The translations under genes and the position numbers were made by a program. A DNA stretch of 12,401 bases from a virus. Its lineage: Duplodnaviria; Heunggongvirae; Uroviricota; Caudoviricetes. Positions 64 to 12,129 of this stretch are shown one piece after another. The notes beneath the pieces are model-generated. The model ran no database searches. It was not told the origin of the DNA and saw only the letters and a program-made list of their open reading frames with translations. How positions within the stretch are numbered: the stretch's first letter is position 1; each line of letters begins with the position of its first letter. The DNA lies in IMG/VR virus record IMGVR_UViG_2597490253_000016. One strand, written 5' to 3'.

Positions 64-151
64 GGTGAGGTGTCCGAGTGGCTGAAGGAGCACGCCTGGA
101 AAGTGTGTATACGGCAACGTATCCGGGGTTCGAATCCCCGCCTCACCGCCA
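64..151 (+). tRNA. serW: tRNA-Ser, anticodon GGA, with encoded CCA end
   Basis: 88-nt sequence GGTGAGGTGTCCGAG...CCTCACCGCCA with 7-bp acceptor stem, long variable arm typical of tRNA-Ser, and anticodon stem CACGC/GUGUG around loop CUGGAAA (anticodon GGA). Matches my recollection of E. coli serW/serX; the position next to clpA argues for serW. Confidence 0.93.
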
Positions 152-261: not shown

Positions 262-816
262 TCAAAACCAGGGAATAGTGGCGGTTGCGCTTAATCCATA
301 ACTACTAAATTCCCCTTTAACCGGTTCTTTGAGCAAATCACCATGACGGATAAACAACTTGAACAGTTGCTGACTCGACAAACTCTTCATATTGAGAAAA
401 GGTAAATCAGTCCGCTGTTCAGCCTGCGTCGCCAGTCGTTCAATTGCCTGTTCTTCAGTTAGCCAGCCTTTTTTCACTGAACGCCTTAACAGACGCTGAG
501 GGTTACTTTTAACCTGCACGCGGCTTACTACTCGCCAGCCTTTTATTTCTGGAACGGGAGTGACAGGTGAACATTGGCAATAGTCCGTTAGTCCTTTACG
601 CCACGTTGAGGCTTCAAGCGCCTGCAATGCCTGGGCGCTACCATGCAAGCGTAAACGCGCTCCAGGCATAACATTTACGTCAGGGAAACTCACGCCGATA
701 TCGCCTTGCCCTCTTGCACCTAATACCCGATGCAGTTTTGCAAATAACGCCGCCATCAACATTTCGCTCGAAAATTCAGGATCTGGCAGAACGCGGATCT
801 CAAGGTAGTGATCCAT
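262..816 (-). CDS. cas6f: Cas6f (Csy4) crRNA-processing endoribonuclease
   Basis: ORF-track protein contains MDHYLEIRVLPDPEF...GVSFPD...SRVQVKSNP...FKLFIRHG...YGLS...IPWF, co-linear with Csy4 as I recall it. I place the start at the second in-frame ATG (814-816) because it aligns with the Csy4 N-terminus and has an AAGGAG Shine-Dalgarno 6 nt upstream; the ORF-track start at 858 would add 14 residues. Stop TGA at 262-264. Confidence 0.9.
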   Translation of the reverse strand: MDHYLEIRVLPDPEFSSEMLMAALFAKLHRVLGARGQGDIGVSFPDVNVMPGARLRLHGSAQALQALEASTWRKGLTDYCQCSPVTPVPEIKGWRVVSRVQVKSNPQRLLRRSVKKGWLTEEQAIERLATQAEQRTDLPFLNMKSLSSQQLFKLFIRHGDLLKEPVKGEFSSYGLSATATIPWF

Positions 817-826
817 TGGCAGCTCC

Positions 827-1828
827 TTATTCCGATTTCTCACCAAAGACACCGCCACGGATCAGCACAGCCATCACGTAGTGCTGCTGCTCAACGTCTG
901 GTTTCATCCCTTTAGTCACCCAATTGTCCAGTAAGGTATAAAAGTCGAGTTTTTCTTTCGGTTGACGGCAGGCCACACCGCGACTGGTTACAGAACCGTA
1001 AGGTTCCACGGCTATAGCCCCCAATTCATCAACCTTTGGATGCCAGGTATCAATGGTACGTAAAGCATTGCCAATCTTCTGAGAGTGAATACCGGCAATG
1101 CCAGCCACCTGGTATAACACGCGACTTTTACTACTGTTGCTGTCGAGTACCAGCTCCTGCGACGGAAAAACTTCTTGCCCGGCACCAAGACGAACCTGCG
1201 CTTCAACGGTAAGCATCACCCACTCTTTTGCGCTTAATCCTTGCTCTATAATGGCCGCCAGCTGCGTGACCGCTGCCTGTCCCTGGTCAAATTGACGTAA
1301 AGAGAAGTCATGGCTGTTAAAAGTCCATGACGTCTCGTTAGCAGTCACTTTCACCTGGATCTGTTCGGCACCAATGCGGTTGCGCCACAGAAAACGACCA
1401 TTTGCCAGATTCAGCGCATAGCGAAGCGCCAGCTCTTTAAAGCCATGTTCGCTGATGTAACCTTCAATGACCCCGGAAAGCGCCTCCTGGTAAGCCATAT
1501 CATTACATACTGACGGTGTGGATAAATTACCCAGCACACGCAGCGTAAACACCACCTTTAACGTATCCGTATCTACCGGAAGCGAAGCCACATCCACCCG
1601 TTGCAGGTTGGCTTTTTGGATTTCAGCATCCAGTTTTGTGGGATCGCTGACAATGGCATTTTTCAGGCGATTAGAGATGGTTCCGCGGACCGCTTTCTCC
1701 TGAATCTCAATGGGTTGCCATTCATTTCCTTGCCAGTTACCTGCGTACATTACCGCGTCAGAGGTTGCCAGTTTGCGCTCAAATGCCAGTACCGACGCCG
1801 TTTTTATTGCTACAGGAGCCTTTGCCAT
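827..1828 (-). CDS. csy3: Csy3 / Cas7f, backbone subunit of the type I-F Csy (Cascade) complex
   Basis: 333-aa ORF with [94 protein letters not shown], recognisably Csy3-like. AAGGA Shine-Dalgarno upstream of ATG 1826-1828. Confidence 0.93.
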
Positions 1829-1838
1829 AATTATGTCC

Positions 1839-2762
1839 TTATTCTAAATCGTCATATTCATTAAAGGTAAAATCATCAACAACTGGCGTTGCCGAACAAT
1901 AGTAGCCAGTGTCCGTTGTGCGGTAACGCCACATCAGCGCTTGCAAGTCTGTAGTGCGATGTAATCCGCGCCATTCGCCAATGCCATATACCGCTTCAGC
2001 AAAGGCAAATGGCGTCACGGTGTCGCGCGCATTTTCAACTTCACCGGGTGCGTAAACAGGAGAAATGCGTTGGTAGCCACACATTAACGGTACCAGGAAA
2101 CCAGGTATTGGCTTCGGCTGGTATACCCATTTTGCGCTGTTGTCTTCAGCCGGAGATTCGGCCTGATATTTAATCGCGGCGAAATCAAGCCAGGCATCCA
2201 GCAACGAGATGTCGGGATGTTGTTGGTGATGTTCAGCCAGCCATTCACTGCGATCGTAAAGCGCATAACCCGGCATTAACCGCCAGACGATTTTACGCAG
2301 TTGCTTTTCATCTTCAGGCGCATGAAAAAGCTGCGGATCGCGCATACTGACAATGCTGCCGCCCGCCAGTTTGTGGCTCTGGCAAAGCATTTTCAGATAG
2401 TCACAAAGAACTTTTCTGCCATATTCACCATTGGTGATTTCGCCATTACATTCAATCAGTAGAGAAACCGTCAAGTGCATGCGGCCCTCTTCATTGAACG
2501 AGGCGGTTTTACCTTCTCTGGTTAATGGGTTACGGGTGAGAGCGAACTAAAAATCGCGCCCAGAGCTGTACGCCTGAATATGCTGTTCATGGCTTACTAC
2601 CGCACAACCATCAAAACTTACGCCAAATTCATCCACGACTTTGCGAGAAAGCGCATGGACATAACCGAGAAAATGGGTCATCGACGGGAATCCCCAGGTC
2701 AACCCGGAGACAGCGTTAGCGTTTTCGATGCGTATATGGGGTAACAAGAGCAGATAACTCAT
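1839..2762 (-). pseudogene. csy2: Csy2 / Cas5f interrupted by an in-frame amber (TAG) codon at 2547-2549
   Basis: Two ORF-track fragments (2547..2762, 71 aa; 1839..2480, 213 aa) are in the same frame. Translating the gap by hand gives ...[37 protein letters not shown]..., so Cas5f-like similarity runs straight through the stop (plus-strand cta at 2547-2549). Full length would be 307 codons. The ATG (2762-2760) overlaps the csy1 stop in an ATGA arrangement. A sequencing error or amber suppression cannot be excluded from sequence alone. Confidence 0.7.
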
Positions 2763-4066
2763 TTCAGCGCCTCCTGCAAAACAGCTTCCATTTCACGCAT
2801 CCGTTGAGCGAACAGAGACTGGCTGCGCCACTCTTTTTGTTCGACAGCGCCTACGTCAAAACTGGATTTTTTCAGGCGATAGTTCAGCCAGCGTGCGAAA
2901 TCATCGGCGACAGTTACTTGCCAGTCGTTTTTCTCACGCTCCTGTTTGAAAGTCTCATCTGAGAGGCTTCGCCACGGGTCCAGCCAAAGTTGTTGGTGGC
3001 GAGGTAAGTCTGGTGATTGTGCGGACCATCCCTGCCATTTTTCTTGCTGAAAAGCGGATGCCTGCATGAACAGCAAATCGATCAACTCATCAATATATTT
3101 CGCCCGCACAGTTCGGATATGGACATTATTTATGTCAACCTTCAGTAAGTAGGTCATCTGGGCGACAATGCCTGAAGCCGCCCGATTGAAATCGCCGCGT
3201 AGGGAAAAAATACTGCGCATGTTTTGTGGCGCGCGATCCAGCGTCGCCCAGGTGGGCGGCATTGACGGCAACAGCCAGACACGGCCACCCCGCACACTAT
3301 TGAGCAAAGAAATATTCTGCGGTTTTGTGCCGCCAAAATGCATTTCGGCAAGATTAGGAAACCAGATATCTGGCTGGGAGTGCCATTTTCCTGCTTTGCG
3401 GGCATCGCGAATGGCTTTCGACTCCTCACTAAAGCGCACGGCGGTTAGCTTTTCATACATCGCCTGCGCCAGTGAACTGGAAAACAGTGGGCATAACAGG
3501 TGATAACCATCCGCAACAGGGAAATAGATTTGTTTCGCCAGTTTATGGCTGGAAGGCCGTCCAGTAGTCCATGCCTGGCTAAACCCAGCTACCCACAGCT
3601 CCAGTTGCACTTTATCCTCTGCAAACGTACTTAATGCCTGATAATCACCACGCTTCAGGCTGGCAAGCAGTGAATCTCCGTTCACATCGGTTTGTAGCAA
3701 CTTTGCTACGTCAAGTGCAGCGGCGTTACCAATCGCGTCAGTAGCGACATTCGCCAACGATGCTGTGTTTAAATAGCTTTCGTTAGCGGAGGTTTCCAGA
3801 TAAAAGCTACTGGCTTTAGAATCACCATGACTGAATTTAGCGCCATGAGTGACTAATTTGATTTGCCCGGCACGCTTTGCCGCATCCGTTAACCAGTTAC
3901 GTGGCAAGTAGCGTGCTTCGAGTTCCTGCCGCTCCTGAGCGATAACGCTGGCGTCCTCGCCCTGTTCCACTCGCTTTGCGGCTTCTTTTTCAAAGGCATC
4001 GATTTTGGGTTGCCTTCGCGAAGCGATGTATTCAGTAATAAATTGTATTAGCGCCGTTTTTTCCAT
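2759..4066 (-). CDS. csy1: Csy1 / Cas8f, large subunit of the type I-F Csy complex
   Basis: 435-aa ORF immediately upstream of csy2 with ATGA overlap; size and operon position match Csy1 (about 434 aa in Pseudomonas aeruginosa). Strong AAGGAG Shine-Dalgarno 6 nt upstream of ATG 4064-4066. Confidence 0.9.
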   Translation of the reverse strand: MEKTALIQFITEYIASRRQPKIDAFEKEAAKRVEQGEDASVIAQERQELEARYLPRNWLTDAAKRAGQIKLVTHGAKFSHGDSKASSFYLETSANESYLNTASLANVATDAIGNAAALDVAKLLQTDVNGDSLLASLKRGDYQALSTFAEDKVQLELWVAGFSQAWTTGRPSSHKLAKQIYFPVADGYHLLCPLFSSSLAQAMYEKLTAVRFSEESKAIRDARKAGKWHSQPDIWFPNLAEMHFGGTKPQNISLLNSVRGGRVWLLPSMPPTWATLDRAPQNMRSIFSLRGDFNRAASGIVAQMTYLLKVDINNVHIRTVRAKYIDELIDLLFMQASAFQQEKWQGWSAQSPDLPRHQQLWLDPWRSLSDETFKQEREKNDWQVTVADDFARWLNYRLKKSSFDVGAVEQKEWRSQSLFAQRMREMEAVLQEALK

Positions 4067-4208
4067 ATCGGCTCCTTTTCGTTAATCCATCAAGTCGAAG
4101 TTGCTCCCTGATTTCACTGAAAAATCTCCGTAGCCCAACATGGCTTCAGTACAACTGACATACACAGCAAAAGGGACAACACCAGTGGTGATCACACAAA
4201 CAAACTCT

Positions 4209-4235
4209 CCTAGAGATATCTTCTAAAAGATATTA
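4209..4235. promoter_or_regulatory. Putative operator: CC-PAM-flanked partial protospacer matching the seed of the mini-array spacer, overlapping an inverted repeat
   Basis: Plus strand CC(4209-4210)-TAGAGaTATCTtC(4211-4223) is identical to mini-array spacer positions 1-13 except positions 6 and 12. Overlaps inverted repeat ATATCTT-N4-AAGATAT (4216-4233) in an AT-rich region about 145 bp upstream of the csy1 start. Confidence 0.4.
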
Positions 4236-4282
4236 TTAAATCTCATGTAATCACCATAGGTGATATTAAAGCAACTTAATAT

Positions 4283-4311
4283 TTGCCACGCAATAGTTGA
4301 AGCACTAACAT
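4283..4311 (+). promoter_or_regulatory. Candidate sigma70 promoter for the crRNA-like RNA
   Basis: TTGCCA (4283-4288, 5/6 match to TTGACA), 17-bp spacer, TAACAT (4306-4311, 4/6 match to TATAAT); predicted start near 4318, at the start of the first degenerate repeat. Motif match only. Confidence 0.25.
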
Positions 4312-4317
4312 ACCCAA

Positions 4318-4392
4318 ACTGCCTTGAGCAGCTTAGAAATAGAGGTATCTCCGGATACGGACTTGTAAACTGCCGTACAGGCAGCTCGCGCC
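4318..4392 (+). ncRNA. crRNA-like RNA gene: degenerate two-repeat mini-array (psiR1-psiS-psiR2), candidate CreR/CreA-type regulator
   Basis: psiR1 4318-4339 ACTGCC-TTGA-GCAGCTTAGAAA (last 12 nt identical to the repeat 3' end, including the 8-nt 5' handle CTTAGAAA). psiS 4340-4364 TAGAGGTATCTCCGGATACGGACTT (25 nt). psiR2 4365-4392 GTaaACTGCCGTACAGGCAGCTcgcgcc (20 of the first 22 positions match; Cas6f hairpin CTGCCGTACAGGCAG intact). Opposite strand to the main array and cas genes; ends 3 nt before the cas3 stop codon. Confidence 0.55.
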
Positions 4393-4395
4393 CCA

Positions 4396-7300
4396 TCACA
4401 TGTTGCGAAACACACCTAACCAGGGGTGATAACGCCAGTCATCGACCGCATCTTCTTCACTGACGGGTACTCTCACCTCCGCAAACTTTTCCCCAACGTT
4501 TGCTATCTCACAACTTTGCTTATCAGCTAAATTCAACAAAACGTGTTGGTAATCCATCACGCCCCAGCAAGCGACGCCGCTGGCGCATCTCACCTCTTCT
4601 CGCCTGAAATTCCCTTGCGCTTTACGCTCGTTGTCGCCCGTGCGGGAATAGAAACGCGCTTCGCTTTCTTCATCATCCATATGCAGAAAAAACACCGCCT
4701 CCGGCAAAGGGGAATAACGAAATGGCGTCTGGCGCTGCATCCAGCCGTTCCAGCTTAGCGGTGCACGCCACCATTGCGCCGCCACCACATGTTTGCTTTT
4801 ACTGCTCATCAATTCGGCGGATAAACGACTATGTTCTAGCTCCGCCAGTTTGTTGGCATTATTGGCAGACAGGATCCGCGGCAAGGCGTTAATCGTCCGG
4901 TAGTCCGCGATCGGAATCAGTTCGCAAATATCGTGGCTATTCAGCAAGTGTTCTTTTGTTTCGAAACCAGGCTTACAAAATGCGGGGGCTTTTTTCTGCA
5001 ATGATTTGATATTGCTACGCAAAATAACCAGATTCTCACTGGTCGGCACATTTCTACGGTGGCGCTGAATACGTCCGGCAAATTGAATTATCGAACGCAT
5101 GGAGCTTGGTTCGATAATTCCCCAGTCCGCATCCCAGTCACGCCCCACTTCTATAACCGATGTCCCCAACACCACAAACAGATGGTGCGATTCCGGACGG
5201 TTATGTAAGGCATCTGCGATATCTTCGTTGTTCCAGAAATCGAGTTCGTTATGACGAGTAAAAGCGCGATCCAGTCGCTTCTCAATATCTGAACGCACCG
5301 CCAGCGGATGTCGGGAGTGGTAAACACAGTAATGAATGCAGACATCTTCTGGTGAAGGAATGGCAATCAGGGCTTTGGTCACCGCAACCAGTGGATTGAT
5401 ATTCGCGAAGCGCACCAGGCCCAGCGAAACGGTTTTACCGCTTTCGTGTCGCTGGCGATGCGCCTGATGCAACTTCAGCATTTGCGTATGCACCGTCTGG
5501 GCCACACTTTCGGTAACATCTTGTATCGCGCCTGATGCTGATGAAACCGAAGCTACACGCCCGAAATGCAGTCGTTCTTTTTCAGCCAGCATTACCGCTC
5601 GTCGTGCAACAAATTTGGCATGAGCATCACGAAACCCAGGTCCGTCGTAAATTTGCGTGGCATCAGCATCTTTTTCATCAAACCAGGCGCAGCATATATT
5701 GACAGGCCTGCCGTTGATACCACAAGACGCCTGCCACATTTTTCGCCCAGCAAGATAAGCCGCGAACAGCGCCTGAATCAAACCTGGCGGTAACGTCGCG
5801 GAAGAAAGTAATACCCGCGTTCCCAGCATCCCGGCCCAGTTCATCAATCGACATACCGCATGAAGATCAGCAATATCAAAGTCATCAGGTTCGTCGAGCA
5901 CTAAATCGCTGGTTAACAGGCGCAACATCGCCGGAAGCTGTTTCCCGCCTCGCACGCCCTCGGTCGCGGAAATAAGATGATCAATCGTCGAGACCAGAAT
6001 CGGCGCGCTTACTAACTCCTTAAGTTTGCTGTCATCCTTCAACCATTTTTCCAGCGCCCCGGTATGCAGGCTGCCTTCGTACTTAACGAACTGTTGCTCC
6101 TCTGCCGGCGACTCTTGCGAAGCACTTCCGCAATCATTGTCTATTTTTTCCTGTTGCCACAGTTGATTAACTGCCGCCGAACCAATCAGTACCGCCAGCT
6201 CATCCTCACCCAGCCCAAGCCGACTGCGCAGAGCATCGCCGGTTTGTAAAGTCAGCGTGCGCAATCCCAGCGCAACGGTAAAGCGGCACCCTTCTCGCTC
6301 GTCGGCAAGTGCATACATAATGCGGGCGTTCGCAAAGGTTTTACCACACCCCGTCGAGGCCATATTGACGCCGAAAAATCCCTCTTCACGACTTCGTTCA
6401 CGTAACGCTCGCGCCACATCCCAGGCTTTATCTTGCCAGCGATAATTCACATCTGTAGCCCGCTGGCTAAAACCTTTATGTCGGGCAATTGCCGGAAGCG
6501 ATGCCCGTGTGTGCATCAGTTGCCGCCCAAGCAGATACGCATGATGCGCGACGCCCACAAGGTGTTCGTCTACCCGTTGTTTGAGCGTGCCGCTTTGGCG
6601 ATCGCTATTTGCCCAGACGATATAATCCGGGTCCTGCCATTTTTGCTGCGCATCGCTTGAGGAATAGTAATGATCGGCAAGCATCAGACAAAAACGCGCC
6701 ATATGTAAGGGGAACAACTGTTCCATCTGCCCATATGTCTTTAAACCGAGCGCGTTGCTTGCCCGGCGGGCTATCTGACGCGCTTTTTCCCGCCAGCTCG
6801 CGCTTTGAAGCGGCGTTCCTGATGGAAACTGCCAGACGTGCGCAAAATCCTGTTGTGACCAGTCATCTCTGCGGTGGTTAACGGCATTCCAGTCAGCATT
6901 AAGTTGCTTCTCCAGCCAACTTTCACACCCTTTACATGATTGTTCCGACTGTGGAGAAAGATTCTCCGGCATTCGATGATGGGAAAGGATCAGCCAGCCT
7001 ACCGTTTTGGCTAATGGTTGCAGCGAACTGAACGGGCTATTTGAAAATTGAGGAGTGTCTTTTTGCAGGCGCTCAAGAATCGCAGATTCATCATCTGCCG
7101 TGAGTTCGCCAAGCTTCGCCAGCCACACATCGTCGGGCCGCTCACCGACAAACGTCTGAAAGAGCCGCAGTGAAATCCATTCATGTCGGTAAGGTTGATA
7201 ACTGCGGGTATTCTTTTGAGTCAGGCTTTGCTGAAAGCTGCGTCCTGATTTACCAAAATCATGAAATAGCCCAGCGATAGCCGCCAGCAGTGCAATACTT

Positions 7301-7629
7301 TCCGCGCACTGCCAGCGATTTTCTTCTTTGTTCACCAGGCTGATTTGCGTTGTTCGATTTGTGGGAACGCGGCCTTGAGCATTAAAGCGACGAATATTGC
7401 CGACAATCCACATCAGCTCCGTTTGCCCATTCTTCTTCAGCCAGTGACAAGCCACTGCGGTATTTCGCCTGGCGGTTTTGCGCAGTAAACGGCGGAGTGT
7501 ATTAACGCCTTCCAGAGTAATCACCGTTTGCCATGCTGCGTCACCAGTGCGTTCGGCAAACTGATCAATAATACGGCAGCTTTCCACGCGAGCATTTTTC
7601 GTACAGCGTGAGATAATTAGGACATTCAT
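4396..7629 (-). CDS. cas3: Cas2-Cas3 fusion (type I-F Cas2/3): N-terminal Cas2 domain, HD nuclease, superfamily 2 helicase
   Basis: 1077-aa ORF. HD motif in LLAAIAGLFHDFGKS, Walker A in MASTGCGKT, DExD-like LVLDEPDDFD; N-terminus MNVLIISRCTKNARVE...RNTAVACHW resembles Cas2. Start ATG 7629-7627 overlaps the cas1 stop (ATGA). Length matches I-F Cas2/3 (about 1076 aa in P. aeruginosa). Confidence 0.93.
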   Translation of the reverse strand: MNVLIISRCTKNARVESCRIIDQFAERTGDAAWQTVITLEGVNTLRRLLRKTARRNTAVACHWLKKNGQTELMWIVGNIRRFNAQGRVPTNRTTQISLVNKEENRWQCAESIALLAAIAGLFHDFGKSGRSFQQSLTQKNTRSYQPYRHEWISLRLFQTFVGERPDDVWLAKLGELTADDESAILERLQKDTPQFSNSPFSSLQPLAKTVGWLILSHHRMPENLSPQSEQSCKGCESWLEKQLNADWNAVNHRRDDWSQQDFAHVWQFPSGTPLQSASWREKARQIARRASNALGLKTYGQMEQLFPLHMARFCLMLADHYYSSSDAQQKWQDPDYIVWANSDRQSGTLKQRVDEHLVGVAHHAYLLGRQLMHTRASLPAIARHKGFSQRATDVNYRWQDKAWDVARALRERSREEGFFGVNMASTGCGKTFANARIMYALADEREGCRFTVALGLRTLTLQTGDALRSRLGLGEDELAVLIGSAAVNQLWQQEKIDNDCGSASQESPAEEQQFVKYEGSLHTGALEKWLKDDSKLKELVSAPILVSTIDHLISATEGVRGGKQLPAMLRLLTSDLVLDEPDDFDIADLHAVCRLMNWAGMLGTRVLLSSATLPPGLIQALFAAYLAGRKMWQASCGINGRPVNICCAWFDEKDADATQIYDGPGFRDAHAKFVARRAVMLAEKERLHFGRVASVSSASGAIQDVTESVAQTVHTQMLKLHQAHRQRHESGKTVSLGLVRFANINPLVAVTKALIAIPSPEDVCIHYCVYHSRHPLAVRSDIEKRLDRAFTRHNELDFWNNEDIADALHNRPESHHLFVVLGTSVIEVGRDWDADWGIIEPSSMRSIIQFAGRIQRHRRNVPTSENLVILRSNIKSLQKKAPAFCKPGFETKEHLLNSHDICELIPIADYRTINALPRILSANNANKLAELEHSRLSAELMSSKSKHVVAAQWWRAPLSWNGWMQRQTPFRYSPLPEAVFFLHMDDEESEARFYSRTGDNERKAQGNFRREEVRCASGVACWGVMDYQHVLLNLADKQSCEIANVGEKFAEVRVPVSEEDAVDDWRYHPWLGVFRNM

Positions 7630-8609
7630 TGGTCAGCCTTAGCCAGTGCCTGGGCCGTTTCCTGCAGAGAGGTGATCATGACATCCAGCGCATCCGCTTG
7701 TTGAAAGATATTAACACAGCGTTGACGAAACTCCTGAGCATCTTCTCCCGCCATTGCGGCAATAAATGCTTGCGGCATAACAAGAGCATCTTTAATCAGA
7801 TCGGCAAGGTCAAAAACAAGCCCGCCGCGACGTGTCTTACCATGCATTACAGCTAAACCGTGCGGGATACCTGTTACCCACGCCGCCACTGCTGCCAGTC
7901 CATAAGCCAGATAATTCCCTTGATCGAGGAAGCGGTTGGCCATATCGATACCACCGCCCCGTTTTGCGCGAGTGAAATCGCCATACCCCACGGTTTGACT
8001 GACCATTTTGTATAACGCTTTAGTCAATTTGGCCTCAACGAGCATAAGCTGCGTATGGTTTTCTGCCGCGTCTATTTCTTCACAAGTACGATTCAGGAGG
8101 GTATGCAGCGCATTAACATCAGGTTGAAATGCGTGTTCACGCAGCATTTTCGAGCTGGACCAGTGCTTATCGATATGTGTCAGGCGGATTAACTGAAAAC
8201 GTTTCGCGGCAGCAAGTCGTTTGTCTTCAACAAACCAGAAAGAAACCCACTGCTGGAGATACTCTGTAGGGCGATATTCACTTTGTGGGCTGAGCCAGGA
8301 GACATCAACATCCACTTCATTTGCTGAATACAGCGGCGTGCCATCCGTACCACAAAAGCCTACCATCACCCCGGCATGAGCAAATTCACGCATCGCCGCC
8401 TGGGTAACGGAAGTTCCCATTCCCAGCATCAACGCCGTGGTATTCGCAATGGGGATATTCCAGTAGTACGACTCTTTACCTTCGCTGGTAACATACTCCA
8501 CCCGCCCACCATTCACCTGTACCCGGCATTTTTCCAGATAATAAATATTGGCGCGTTTGGAGTGGAGAATGGTTTTGAGATCGGAAGGCGTAAGGTAATT
8601 CGAAGACAT
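7626..8609 (-). CDS. cas1: Cas1 integrase (type I-F)
   Basis: Protein contains LKTILHSKRANIYYL, RVEYVT, YWNIPIANTTALMLG, FCGTDGTPL, SWLSPQSEYRPTEYLQQWV, NRFLDQGNYLAYGLAA, GIPHGLAVMHGKTRRGGLVFDLADLIKD, strongly Cas1(I-F)-like. Start placed at the second ATG (8609-8607), which has AGGA 5 nt upstream; the ORF-track start at 8615 (2 codons longer) is an equally possible annotation. Confidence 0.92.
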   Translation of the reverse strand: MSSNYLTPSDLKTILHSKRANIYYLEKCRVQVNGGRVEYVTSEGKESYYWNIPIANTTALMLGMGTSVTQAAMREFAHAGVMVGFCGTDGTPLYSANEVDVDVSWLSPQSEYRPTEYLQQWVSFWFVEDKRLAAAKRFQLIRLTHIDKHWSSSKMLREHAFQPDVNALHTLLNRTCEEIDAAENHTQLMLVEAKLTKALYKMVSQTVGYGDFTRAKRGGGIDMANRFLDQGNYLAYGLAAVAAWVTGIPHGLAVMHGKTRRGGLVFDLADLIKDALVMPQAFIAAMAGEDAQEFRQRCVNIFQQADALDVMITSLQETAQALAKADQ

Positions 8610-8781: not shown

Positions 8782-9289
8782 TGTGAATACTGCCTGTACG
8801 GCAGTGAACAAGGAGAGACGGTCGCACTCTTCAACGTTCAGTTTCTAAGCTGCCTGTACGGCAGTGAACTGGCGGCAGGAGGGAGGACTGCTGCGCCATC
8901 ATTTCTAAGCTGCCTGTACGGCAGTGAACGCAGAGATTGAGCCATTCCCCGCAGCCGTGCTTTTCTAAGCTGCCTGTACGGCAGTGAACCCGCGCGGCTG
9001 AAATTGAGAGCCTCCGGCTGATTTCTAAGCTGCCTGTACGGCAGTGAACCAATAAAATATCAAAGGCGGTTTTATGCTGGCTTTCTAAGCTGCCTGTACG
9101 GCAGTGAACTTGTGCCTGTTTTATGCGGGCGCTCTGGTTTCTTTCTAAGCTGCCTGTACGGCAGTGAACACGCTGCGCAGTACCCTGACCGGTGCGAACG
9201 TTTTCTAAGCTGCCTGTACGGCAGTGAACGGTTTCGCCTCAATGATCTGCATATGGCGTCATTTCTAAGCTGCCTGTACGGCAGTGAAC
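8782..9289 (-). CRISPR. Type I-F CRISPR array: 9 repeats (8 identical 28-bp plus 1 degenerate terminal) and 8 spacers of 32 bp
   Basis: Plus-strand unit TTTCTAAGCTGCCTGTACGGCAGTGAAC, i.e. minus-strand GTTCACTGCCGTACAGGCAGCTTAGAAA (canonical I-F repeat). Repeats at 8842-8869, 8902-8929, 8962-8989, 9022-9049, 9082-9109, 9142-9169, 9202-9229, 9262-9289. Terminal repeat 8782-8809 reads GTTCACTGCCGTACAGGCAGtATTcAcA in crRNA sense (degenerate 3' end), which fixes the orientation: leader at the high-coordinate end, transcription toward cas1. Confidence 0.97.
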
Positions 9290-9501: not shown

Positions 9502-11778
9502 TTAATGCGCTGCTTCCGCCTTGTGCTTTTGTGCACTCTGGAATCCGTAAGTCAGCTCATTTTTCTCTTTATCCAGCGCGACGGTGACCTGACCGCCGTC
9601 CACCAGCGAACCAAACAGCAGTTCGTTGGCGAGCGGTTTTTTCAGGTTGTCCTGGATGACACGCGCCATCGGACGTGCGCCCATTGCCCGGTCGTAACCT
9701 TTCTCGGCCAGCCAGTTACGCGCTTCCTGGCTCACTTCCAGAGAAACACCTTTCTGATCCAACTGAACCTGCAACTCGACGATGAATTTATCCACCACCT
9801 GATGGATCACGTCGGTTGACAGATGATCGAACCAGATAATGTTGTCGAGACGGTTACGGAATTCCGGTGTAAAGATCTTCTTGATCTCTTCCATCGCATC
9901 GGTGCTGTTATCCTGGTGGATAAGACCAATGGATTTGCGCTCGGTTTCACGTACCCCCGCGTTAGTGGTCATCACCAGCACCACGTTACGGAAGTCCGCT
10001 TTGCGTCCGTTGTTATCGGTCAGTGTACCGTTGTCCATCACCTGCAAGAGGATGTTGAACACGTCCGGGTGCGCTTTCTCGATTTCGTCCAGCAGCAGCA
10101 CCGCATGTGGATGCTTGATGACCGCATCAGTCAGCAAACCGCCCTGATCAAAACCAACGTATCCCGGAGGCGCACCAATCAGACGGCTGACGGTATGGCG
10201 TTCCATATACTCGGACATATCAAAGCGCAGAAGCTCAATGCCCAACGCTTTCGAAAGCTGTACCGTCACCTCTGTTTTCCCGACCCCAGTAGGGCCGGCA
10301 AACAGGAACGAACCGACCGGTTTATGTTCGTGACCTAAACCTGCACGCGCCATCTTAATGGCTTCAGTCAGCGCCTCAATGGCTTTATCCTGACCGAAGA
10401 CCAGCATTTTCAGGCGATCGCCGAGGTTTTTCAGGGTATCGCGGTCACTCTGAGAAACACTCTTCTCTGGAATGCGTGCAATACGGGCCACCACGGATTC
10501 AATATCCGCCACATTAACGGTTTTCTTGCGTTTGCTTACCGGCATCAGACGTGCGCGAGCGCCCGCTTCGTCGATAACATCAATCGCTTTATCCGGCAGA
10601 TGACGATCGTTAATGTATTTCACCGCCAGCTCTACCGCCGCACGCACCGCTTTTGCGGTATAACGCACGTCGTGGTGCGCTTCATACTTCGGTTTCAGGC
10701 CATTGATGATTTGAACAGTTTCTTCGATTGACGGTTCAGTAATATCAATTTTCTGGAAGCGACGCGCCAGAGCACGGTCTTTCTCAAAAATGTTGCTGAA
10801 CTCCTGATAGGTTGTCGAACCAATTACGCGGATTTTACCGCTGGAGAGCAACGGTTTGATCAGGTTAGCCGCATCGACCTGGCCACCAGACGCTGCACCC
10901 GCACCGATAATGGTGTGGATCTCATCAATAAACAGGATGCTATTAGTGTCTTGCTCCAGCTGCTTGAGCAACGCTTTAAAACGTTTTTCAAAGTCGCCGC
11001 GATATTTTGTGCCCGCTAACAGAGAACCGATATCGAGAGAGTAAATCGTACAGTCAGCCATCACTTCCGGCACATCGCCCTGAACAATTCGCCATGCAAG
11101 CCCCTCCGCAATCGCGGTTTTACCGACACCAGACTCCCCCACCAGCAGCGGGTTGTTTTTACGGCGACGGCAGAGAACCTGAATAGCACGCTCCAGCTCC
11201 TTCTCACGACCAATCAGTGGGTCGATTCCGCCCACTCGCGCAAGCTGATTCAGGTTCGTCGTGAAATTCTCCATACGTTCCTCCCCACCAGCTTGTTCTT
11301 CGCTGTTTGGCTGGCTGCCAGGATCAGAAGACTGTGTCGGCTCGTCTTTACGCGTGCCATGAGAGATAAAGTTCACCACATCAAGACGGCTGACTTCATG
11401 TTTGCGCAACAGATATGCCGCCTGCGACTCCTGTTCGCTAAAGATAGCGACCAGAACGTTTGCACCGGTAACCTCATTGCGACCGGAGGACTGGACATGG
11501 AAGACCGCACGTTGCAGTACACGCTGAAAACTCAGCGTCGGCTGTGTGTCGCGCTCCTCTTCACTGGCAGGCAGAACGGGTGTGGTTTGTTCAATAAAGG
11601 CTTCCAGTTCCTGACGGAGCGCAACCAAATCCACAGAACACGCTTCCAGCGCCTCCCGGGCAGATGGGTTACTGAGCAGCGCCAGTAACAAGTGCTCGAC
11701 GGTCATAAACTCATGACGGTGCTCGCGCGCTCTGGCGAAAGCCATATTTAAACTGAGTTCCAGTTCTTGATTGAGCAT
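9502..11778 (-). CDS. clpA: ATP-dependent Clp protease ATP-binding subunit ClpA
   Basis: Protein [35 protein letters not shown]... with two AAA+ modules (GESGVGKT and GPTGVGKT Walker A motifs), matching E. coli ClpA (758 aa) as I recall it. Start placed at ATG 11778-11776 with GGAGG Shine-Dalgarno; the ORF-track TTG at 11793 adds 5 residues and is rejected. Stop TAA at 9502-9504. Confidence 0.97.
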
Positions 11779-11808
11779 AGGCACCTCCCCCAATTTTTAT
11801 GCCTGCAT

Positions 11809-12129
11809 TCAGGCTTTTTCTAGCGTACACAGCAATGGATGCTCATTCTCCCTCGCGTACTTGTTCACCATCGCCACTTTGGTTTCTGCAACCTCAGCGG
11901 TAAAGACTCCGCAAATGGCCTTCCCCTGGTAGTGAACAGCGAGCATCAATTGCGTTGCACGTTCTACATCATAAGAAAAGAATTTTTGTAACACGTCAAT
12001 AACAAACTCCATCGGAGTATAATCATCATTGACTAATATCACTTTATACATAGATGGCGGTTTTAGCGCGTCGCGAACTTTTTCTTCCGCCAGTTGATCA
12101 AAGTCCAGCCAGTCGTTCGTTTTACCCAT
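11809..12129 (-). CDS. clpS: ClpS, ClpA adaptor / N-end rule recognition protein
   Basis: 106-aa [54 protein letters not shown]..., matching E. coli ClpS; located 15 nt upstream of clpA in the conserved clpS-clpA operon arrangement. Confidence 0.96.

Follow-up and report, generated by a model that had tools for sequence, protein, structure and literature searches.

An amber codon at position 72 of csy2/cas5f in an Escherichia coli CRISPR-Cas locus of type I-F, shared across a UTI89/ST95-type lineage and predicted to abolish Csy function

Results

A type I-F locus between clpA and tRNA-Ser

The whole stretch of DNA analysed here (the window, 12.4 kb) is a chromosomal CRISPR-Cas locus of type I-F from Escherichia coli, phylogroup B2, extending from clpA to tRNA-Ser. 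Over its full length it matches many complete E. coli genomes at 2–4 mismatches, including MS8345, APEC O18, NCTC11151, NU14 and UTI89, the last of which belongs to phylogroup B2, ST95. The composition is that of a canonical type I-F system, with cas1, a cas2-3 fusion, csy1, csy2, csy3 and cas6f in this order and an array of 28-nt I-F repeats. The parts of the window are as follows.

9502-12129, order read on the minus strand: clpS-clpA
8782..9289, minus strand: type I-F CRISPR array, leader on the clpA side
7626..8609, minus strand: cas1f, intact (ORF list and UTI89 PGAP annotation)
4396..7629, minus strand: cas2-cas3 fusion (cas3f), intact 1077-aa ORF (ORF list and UTI89 PGAP annotation)
2759..4066, minus strand: csy1/cas8f, intact (WP_000415806.1 in both UTI89 and N1420)
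1839..2762, minus strand: csy2/cas5f pseudogene, whole, 307 codons plus stop, with one interruption
827..1828, minus strand: csy3/cas7f, intact (WP_001029748.1 in both UTI89 and N1420)
262..816, minus strand: cas6f/csy4, intact (WP_000350182.1 in both UTI89 and N1420)
64-151, plus strand: tRNA-Ser(GGA)

An earlier sequence-only reading of the window had described the operon as intact apart from csy2. This description held, as none of the other five cas genes is truncated and csy2 alone is flagged by PGAP in UTI89. A 329-bp gap between cas3f and csy1 (4067-4395) contains no long ORF and has the same length in all loci examined; the csy operon promoter presumably lies within it. At codon 61 of cas1f (position 8427), the window and N1420 have ATG (Met) and UTI89 has ATA (Ile), a difference that is a UTI89-side substitution and not a feature of the window.

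An in-frame amber codon divides csy2

The interruption of csy2 is a single amber codon, which separates the gene into two open reading frames and a short stretch belonging to neither.

2550..2762, minus strand: N-terminal fragment, 71 codons (TIGR02565 positions 1-65, 79.5 bits, below the 154.1-bit cut-off)
2547..2549, minus strand: amber TAG replacing Gln72 (CAG) of csy2/cas5f, C to T on the coding strand at 2549
2481..2546, minus strand: 22 orphaned in-frame codons between the TAG and Met94
1839..2480, minus strand: C-terminal 213-aa ORF, ATG = Met94 (TIGR02565 positions 95-295, 178.2 bits)

In single-frame translation, csy2 begins with the ATG at 2762 and runs for 71 codons to the TAG (codon 72), then for 22 further codons and into the ORF that starts at Met94; the ORF list contains the two pieces as 2547..2762 (minus strand, 71 aa, ATG) and 1839..2480 (minus strand, 213 aa, ATG). 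The in-frame TAG after 71 codons had been placed at 2547-2549 of the minus strand in the sequence-only reading, and the ORF list and translation agree with this in every detail. Its view of the lesion as a nonsense substitution, not a frameshift, is likewise borne out by the 22 codons that continue the same frame into the 213-aa ORF and by Csy2 homology on both sides of the stop. Both fragments derive from one gene, because the 71-aa piece aligns to positions 1-65 and the 213-aa piece to positions 95-295 of the same model, TIGR02565 (the NCBIfam Csy2 equivalog model, with a curated cut-off of 154.1 bits). With codon 72 read as Gln, the csy2 product comprises 307 aa and spans positions 1-295 of 296 at 310.6 bits (E 1e-92), making the repaired product a full-length member of the family above the cut-off. 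The frame itself is interrupted by the TAG at codon 72, and the gene is therefore classed as a csy2 pseudogene. PGAP annotates UTI89 in the same way, with csy2 a pseudogene ("internal stop") and cas1f, cas3f, csy1, csy3 and cas6f intact.

From the native start, the 71-codon fragment is the only product expected. The Met94 ORF could be translated by re-initiation to give a product without residues 1-93, and a GAGG motif is found 5 nt upstream of its ATG. This motif, together with the ability of the C-terminal ORF to exceed the Csy2 family cut-off by itself (178.2 versus 154.1 bits), might suggest a split gene in which the 71-aa peptide and the re-initiated 213-aa protein reassemble into working Cas5f. 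However, residues 72-93 are absent from both pieces and constitute the best-conserved Cas5f block in alignments to solved structures, near-identical to 9irf_A and strongly conserved with Pseudomonas aeruginosa Csy2. Each homologue examined is also a single chain of 307–310 aa or of 327 aa, none of them split at codon 72, and the frozen arrays and UTI89 self-target described below are the same signs of inactivity that argue against decoding of the amber codon. Reassembly of a working protein from two pieces is thus highly improbable. The sequence-only reading had itself raised the prospect that intact Cas5f proteins naturally end or restart at this point; in alignments to the model and to the structures, homologues span the site.

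The amber allele is widespread in one lineage

The TAG in csy2 of UTI89 has been reported before, in comparison with CAG in ED1a, NRG 857C and LF82 (Jiang, Maniv, Arain, Wang, Levin & Marraffini 2013, PLoS Genet 9:e1003844, Fig. S3A). The window carries this UTI89-type Q72* allele, with TAG where intact E. coli I-F loci have CAG. Searching 5,426 complete E. coli genomes with a 61-nt query centred on the stop located the locus in 238, and the exact 61-mer with TAG was present in 125 of these. Carriers include four separate UTI89 assemblies, S88, APEC O1, APEC O18, IHE3034, NU14 and UM146 as well as the species type strain (DSM 30083 = ATCC 11775), and their hosts are humans, chickens, ducks and turkeys from several countries.

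The csy2 genes of UTI89 and the window have the TAG in common and differ by one base, at position 1998, where the change is synonymous (Ala255, GCT in the window versus GCC in UTI89). On the coding strand, position 1998 is T in the window and C in each locus that was compared base by base; the 30 csy2 matches listed, of 239, are all one mismatch from the window. The T at 1998 appears, from these comparisons, to be private to the window's strain, which for this reason is probably absent from the 5,426 complete RefSeq genomes.

A single-base difference is the kind of error that assemblies can carry, and the window's strain falls outside the complete-genome set, with a best csy2 identity of 99.9%. 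A sequencing or assembly error that masks a sense codon nevertheless has a negligible probability. The sole csy2 difference from UTI89 is at 1998, away from the stop, the TAG recurs in 125 independently sequenced complete genomes (four UTI89 assemblies among them), and it was already reported from Sanger-era genomes in 2013 (Jiang et al. 2013). Since the TAG is fixed across a globally distributed lineage, a read error can be excluded without the reads.

The ancestral codon is glutamine

A comparison with csy2 of related strains had been proposed in the sequence-only reading as a means of identifying the ancestral codon, and it returned Gln (CAG or CAA) in every intact relative examined, about eight in number. 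Codon 72 is CAG in NC101, N24, an ST80 strain, N1420, MS1170, 82.0312 and VTB97074v; 503025, a more distant strain, has CAA. Gln was present in each of the seven genomes sampled among those in which the 61-mer was not exact (NC101, N24, the ST80 strain, N1420, 82.0312, MS1266 and 503025). CAG in MS1266 was established by exact match to a haplotype query consisting of nucleotides 150-700 of the window csy2 (551 nt) with T to C at the stop site as its sole change. Four genomes matched this query exactly (MS1170, MS1266, VTB97074v and N1420), and in the three of them that were fetched csy2 is annotated as intact by PGAP.

The closest intact relative is N1420, in which 9 of 8,354 operon bases differ from the window, including the stop site and the window-private SNP; its Csy1, Csy3 and Cas6f proteins are identical to those of UTI89. 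On this comparison, Q72* is young relative to the divergence of the locus, with no further decay visible. The earlier suggestion of recent inactivation therefore stands on the evolutionary scale, given the few differences from N1420, but not at the level of a strain, as the allele is fixed in a global lineage.

CRISPR arrays are invariant in carriers of the amber codon

The array at 8782-9289 consists of eight identical 28-nt repeats, GTTCACTGCCGTACAGGCAGCTTAGAAA, and eight spacers of 32 nt, with a degenerate terminal repeat at 8782-8809 beside cas1. The repeat GTTCACTGCCGTACAGGCAGCTTAGAAA corresponds to "Repeat2" of Touchon & Rocha (2010, PLoS One 5:e11126). The sequence-only reading had additionally supposed that Csy-dependent regulation by a mini-array would be disabled. 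A search of both strands of the window for the I-F repeat with up to five substitutions recovered only the nine repeats at 8782-9289, and that remark has no separate mini-array in the window to refer to.

The window array is identical in UTI89, and at least 40 complete genomes of the TAG lineage, isolated from varied hosts in various countries, align to the entire window with its array at no more than four mismatches. N1420, with intact csy2, shares spacers 3, 5, 6, 7 and 8 of the window array and all six spacers of the second array of UTI89, and possesses seven additional leader-proximal spacers (three in the first array and four in the second); its second array contains 17 spacers as compared to 6 in UTI89. 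Judged by spacer content, each UTI89 array resembles a subset of its N1420 counterpart that has either lost internal spacers or not been extended. In MS1170, also with intact csy2, the upstream array has 41 spacers versus 8 in the window, and only the oldest spacer is common to both. Neither naive nor primed adaptation takes place in type I-F systems unless the Csy complex is intact (Vorontsova et al. 2015, PMC4678832). Loss of Csy function through Q72* would predict static arrays in the TAG lineage and continued growth in intact relatives, and the arrays observed fit this prediction. In a 2026 preprint, a single conserved I-F spacer set is independently described for 145 genomes out of 161, most of them ST95; the csy2 stop goes unmentioned there.

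The clpA-side leader is conserved in nearly all E. coli. A query comprising the leader, spacer 1 and spacer 2 matched 5,387 genomes, and bands of identity and coverage did not separate genotypes among these matches. Many E. coli, ST131 among others, lack cas genes but retain the clpA-side leader with one I-F repeat. In MS15236, tRNA-Ser and infA come immediately after the leader, an arrangement that resembles the scar of a clean deletion removing the entire I-F locus. Strain 503025 has IS100 (istA/istB) between tRNA-Ser and the second array (9752-11553) in a locus that is about 92% identical and otherwise intact.

Spacers match resident and conjugative plasmids

Individual spacers were compared with pUTI89 by local BLAST. 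Within the window, one spacer matched.

8810..8841, minus strand: oldest spacer, sp8, matching a pUTI89 antirestriction gene at 31/32 (mismatch at position 6), with flank CT and not CC

Because its target is flanked by CT instead of the CC PAM, sp8 alone would not force inactivation. In the second array of UTI89, located outside the window beyond tRNA-Ser, spacer 4 matches the strain's own plasmid at 32/32 with a 5'-CC PAM, in the RepFIB initiator gene (pUTI89 46340-46371). The self-targeting argument for the window's strain is transferred from UTI89 and would apply by analogy. Spacers in CRISPR3/CRISPR4 that match the strain's own plasmids have been described for UTI89, APEC O1 and S88 (Touchon & Rocha 2010).

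A search with the anti-RepFIB spacer returned 1,176 matching records in 1,137 genomes. The spacer sequence is present at 121 sites on chromosomes, each annotated CRISPR among the matches listed, and its perfect target at 1,059 sites on plasmids. Spacer and target are found together in at most 39 genomes, an upper bound pooled over csy2 genotypes, which amounts to no more than 32% of spacer carriers versus approximately 19% of all genomes with the target. With the overlap taken as an upper bound, genomes that bear the spacer show no apparent depletion of the target, which is what an inactive system would lead one to expect. N1420, which serves as one natural control, carries the same two anti-pUTI89 spacers beside an intact csy2, and its only two plasmids are one of VirB type (48 kb) and an IncL OXA-48 plasmid of 63.6 kb; neither has F-type replication or transfer genes or a match to any N1420 spacer.

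Compared with a plasmid collection, the window array matched at least 5,000 records, mostly conjugative plasmids of Escherichia, Klebsiella and Salmonella; these whole-array matches are ranked by repeat-to-repeat matches to foreign I-F arrays and cannot be assigned to individual spacers. One plasmid, NZ_MN335639.1, is matched by spacers 7 and 8 at sites some 400 bp from each other, and spacer 8 falls in antirestriction genes. The spacers are therefore directed at genes of conjugative plasmids, those for antirestriction among them.

Discussion

Predicted consequence of the amber codon

The reading put forward, with a probability of approximately 0.9, is that Q72* is a genuine, vertically inherited cas5f allele, fixed in the UTI89/ST95-type B2 lineage, and that it causes loss of function, as judged from comparative patterns and from truncation at 23% of protein length. 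Beginning at the native start, translation would stop after 71 of 307 residues. Without Cas5f, the Csy (type I-F Cascade) complex would be unable to form around the crRNA 5' handle, and interference would be lost. Naive and primed spacer acquisition would be lost as well, because type I-F adaptation needs the whole Csy complex, and the remaining operon and arrays would persist as an unchanging relic. From its sequence, the I-F locus of this lineage is almost certainly inactive.

Among the stop codons, UAG permits read-through most easily in E. coli, and both near-cognate tRNA-Gln and the classical supE suppressor insert Gln at UAG. Traces of full-length Cas5f may thus be produced by Gln read-through. 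A stronger form of this idea, in which a suppressor tRNA or efficient read-through lets the amber codon serve as a sense codon and the resulting full-length Cas5f supports a working, perhaps attenuated, system, is very unlikely. The ancestral residue is Gln, so that a read-through product would be wild type, and all other cas genes are intact. However, the only tRNA in the window is tRNA-Ser(GGA), with no CUA-anticodon tRNA found there. Among complete genomes, for which the supE-type glnV alone was checked, glnV with a CUA anticodon occurs in 155; the 60 of these that were listed are all K-12-type or K-12-sized (about 4.5–4.8 Mb), and no TAG-allele strain was seen among them. UTI89 moreover stably maintains a plasmid that carries a perfect, CC-flanked match to one of its spacers, and the arrays of the lineage are invariant while the intact relative N1420 has added spacers. 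Loss of Csy function accordingly remains the preferred reading of the amber allele.

Plasmid tolerance and neutral decay

Jiang et al. (2013) described a spacer of UTI89 that matches pUTI89 together with the TAG in csy2, and offered the strain as a case of natural CRISPR inactivation permitting plasmid carriage. Under that published proposal, loss of the system was favoured by selection, or at the least tolerated, since beneficial IncF plasmids such as pUTI89 are targets of the array; this is plausible at slightly less than even odds. The same loss of function may also have arisen by neutral decay or by hitch-hiking in a clonal expansion, and not by selection for a self-targeted plasmid, a course of events with nearly an even chance of being correct. 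Decay of cas genes is frequent in Escherichia (Touchon & Rocha 2010), and in the present comparisons it takes several independent forms, with csy1 Q358* (CAA to TAA) in 82.0312, whose spacers have no pUTI89 match, internal stops in cas1 and cas3 of N24, and deletion of the whole operon in MS15236. Furthermore, no more than 32% of spacer carriers hold a perfect target, and most members of the lineage are not currently self-targeting. Against neutral loss stand the perfect, PAM-flanked self-target of UTI89, the closest intact relative, which has the same spacer and neither a spacer-matched plasmid nor F-type replication or transfer genes, and the finding that staphylococci under selection for a targeted plasmid yield cas mutants (Jiang et al. 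2013). These points are not decisive, because one lineage represents one evolutionary event.

Strain 82.0312 combines intact csy2 with a 114,231-bp, pUTI89-sized plasmid that contains the RepFIB protospacer, and its csy1 Q358* lies at 6113-7420 of its locus. None of its spacers matched pUTI89, and the anti-RepFIB spacer is absent from them. This strain neither contradicts nor clearly supports plasmid tolerance, and it shows that I-F decay in E. coli also occurs without a pUTI89 self-target. The stops in N24 are annotated by PGAP as "internal stop" in cas1f and cas3f (locus 970-5183) in a CM-prefixed whole-genome-shotgun record, and could be assembly errors.

Implications for typing and surveys

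The present analysis adds the scale of the allele (at least 125 complete genomes, the species type strain included), a nearest intact relative with longer arrays, and a gene fragment that passes the family cut-off. HMM-based cas typing would call csy2 "present" and the I-F system complete in this major ExPEC lineage, because the C-terminal fragment alone, at 178.2 bits, exceeds the 154.1-bit cut-off. In studies that relate I-F presence to plasmid content or antibiotic susceptibility, such genomes are best treated as I-F-null. The lineage also provides a clean natural example of CRISPR loss beside a self-targeted plasmid, with near-isogenic, intact N1420 for comparison.

A further and more tentative reading is that Q72* may be the direct reason for the invariant I-F spacer set, proposed as a typing marker, of the pandemic ST95 ExPEC lineage, and also a permissive step for acquiring and keeping self-targeted RepFIB/IncF virulence plasmids. 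It is compatible with the 125 genomes that carry the allele, their frozen arrays and the undepleted target, which do not amount to proof. If true, surveys that score ST95 as "type I-F positive" count a dead system. This lineage-level link is stated neither by the 2026 typing preprint nor by the single-strain report of 2013 (Jiang et al. 2013).

Relation to known systems

The mutation and its interpretation are already known, having been published for UTI89 in 2013, and PGAP flags the allele routinely. The window has the same gene, codon and base affected as the UTI89 allele of Jiang et al. (2013), with csy2 differing by one synonymous base and the upstream array identical. It differs in that the strain of the window has the private SNP at 1998, and in that one strain was considered there, as compared to at least 125 complete genomes and the nearest intact relative, N1420, with its longer arrays, here.

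The degraded loci of Escherichia, Shigella and Salmonella (Touchon & Rocha 2010) resemble the window in having pseudogenised cas genes beside retained arrays. In contrast to those loci, which are mostly type I-E with frameshifts, deletions and IS insertions, the window has a single clean nonsense substitution in a type I-F system in which every other gene is intact.

The Csy system of P. aeruginosa has the same operon order of cas1, cas2-3, csy1, csy2, csy3 and cas6f. Its Cas5f (Csy2; PDB 5UZ9 chain B, also 6B44 chain B) is homologous to the repaired product over residues 4-293 (E 3e-57 for 5UZ9), and 9IRF chain A is a closer homologue, over residues 1-292 (E 6.5e-99). The proteins in 5UZ9, 6B44 and 9IRF are full length and functional, whereas the gene in the window stops near the equivalent of P. 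aeruginosa residue 80.
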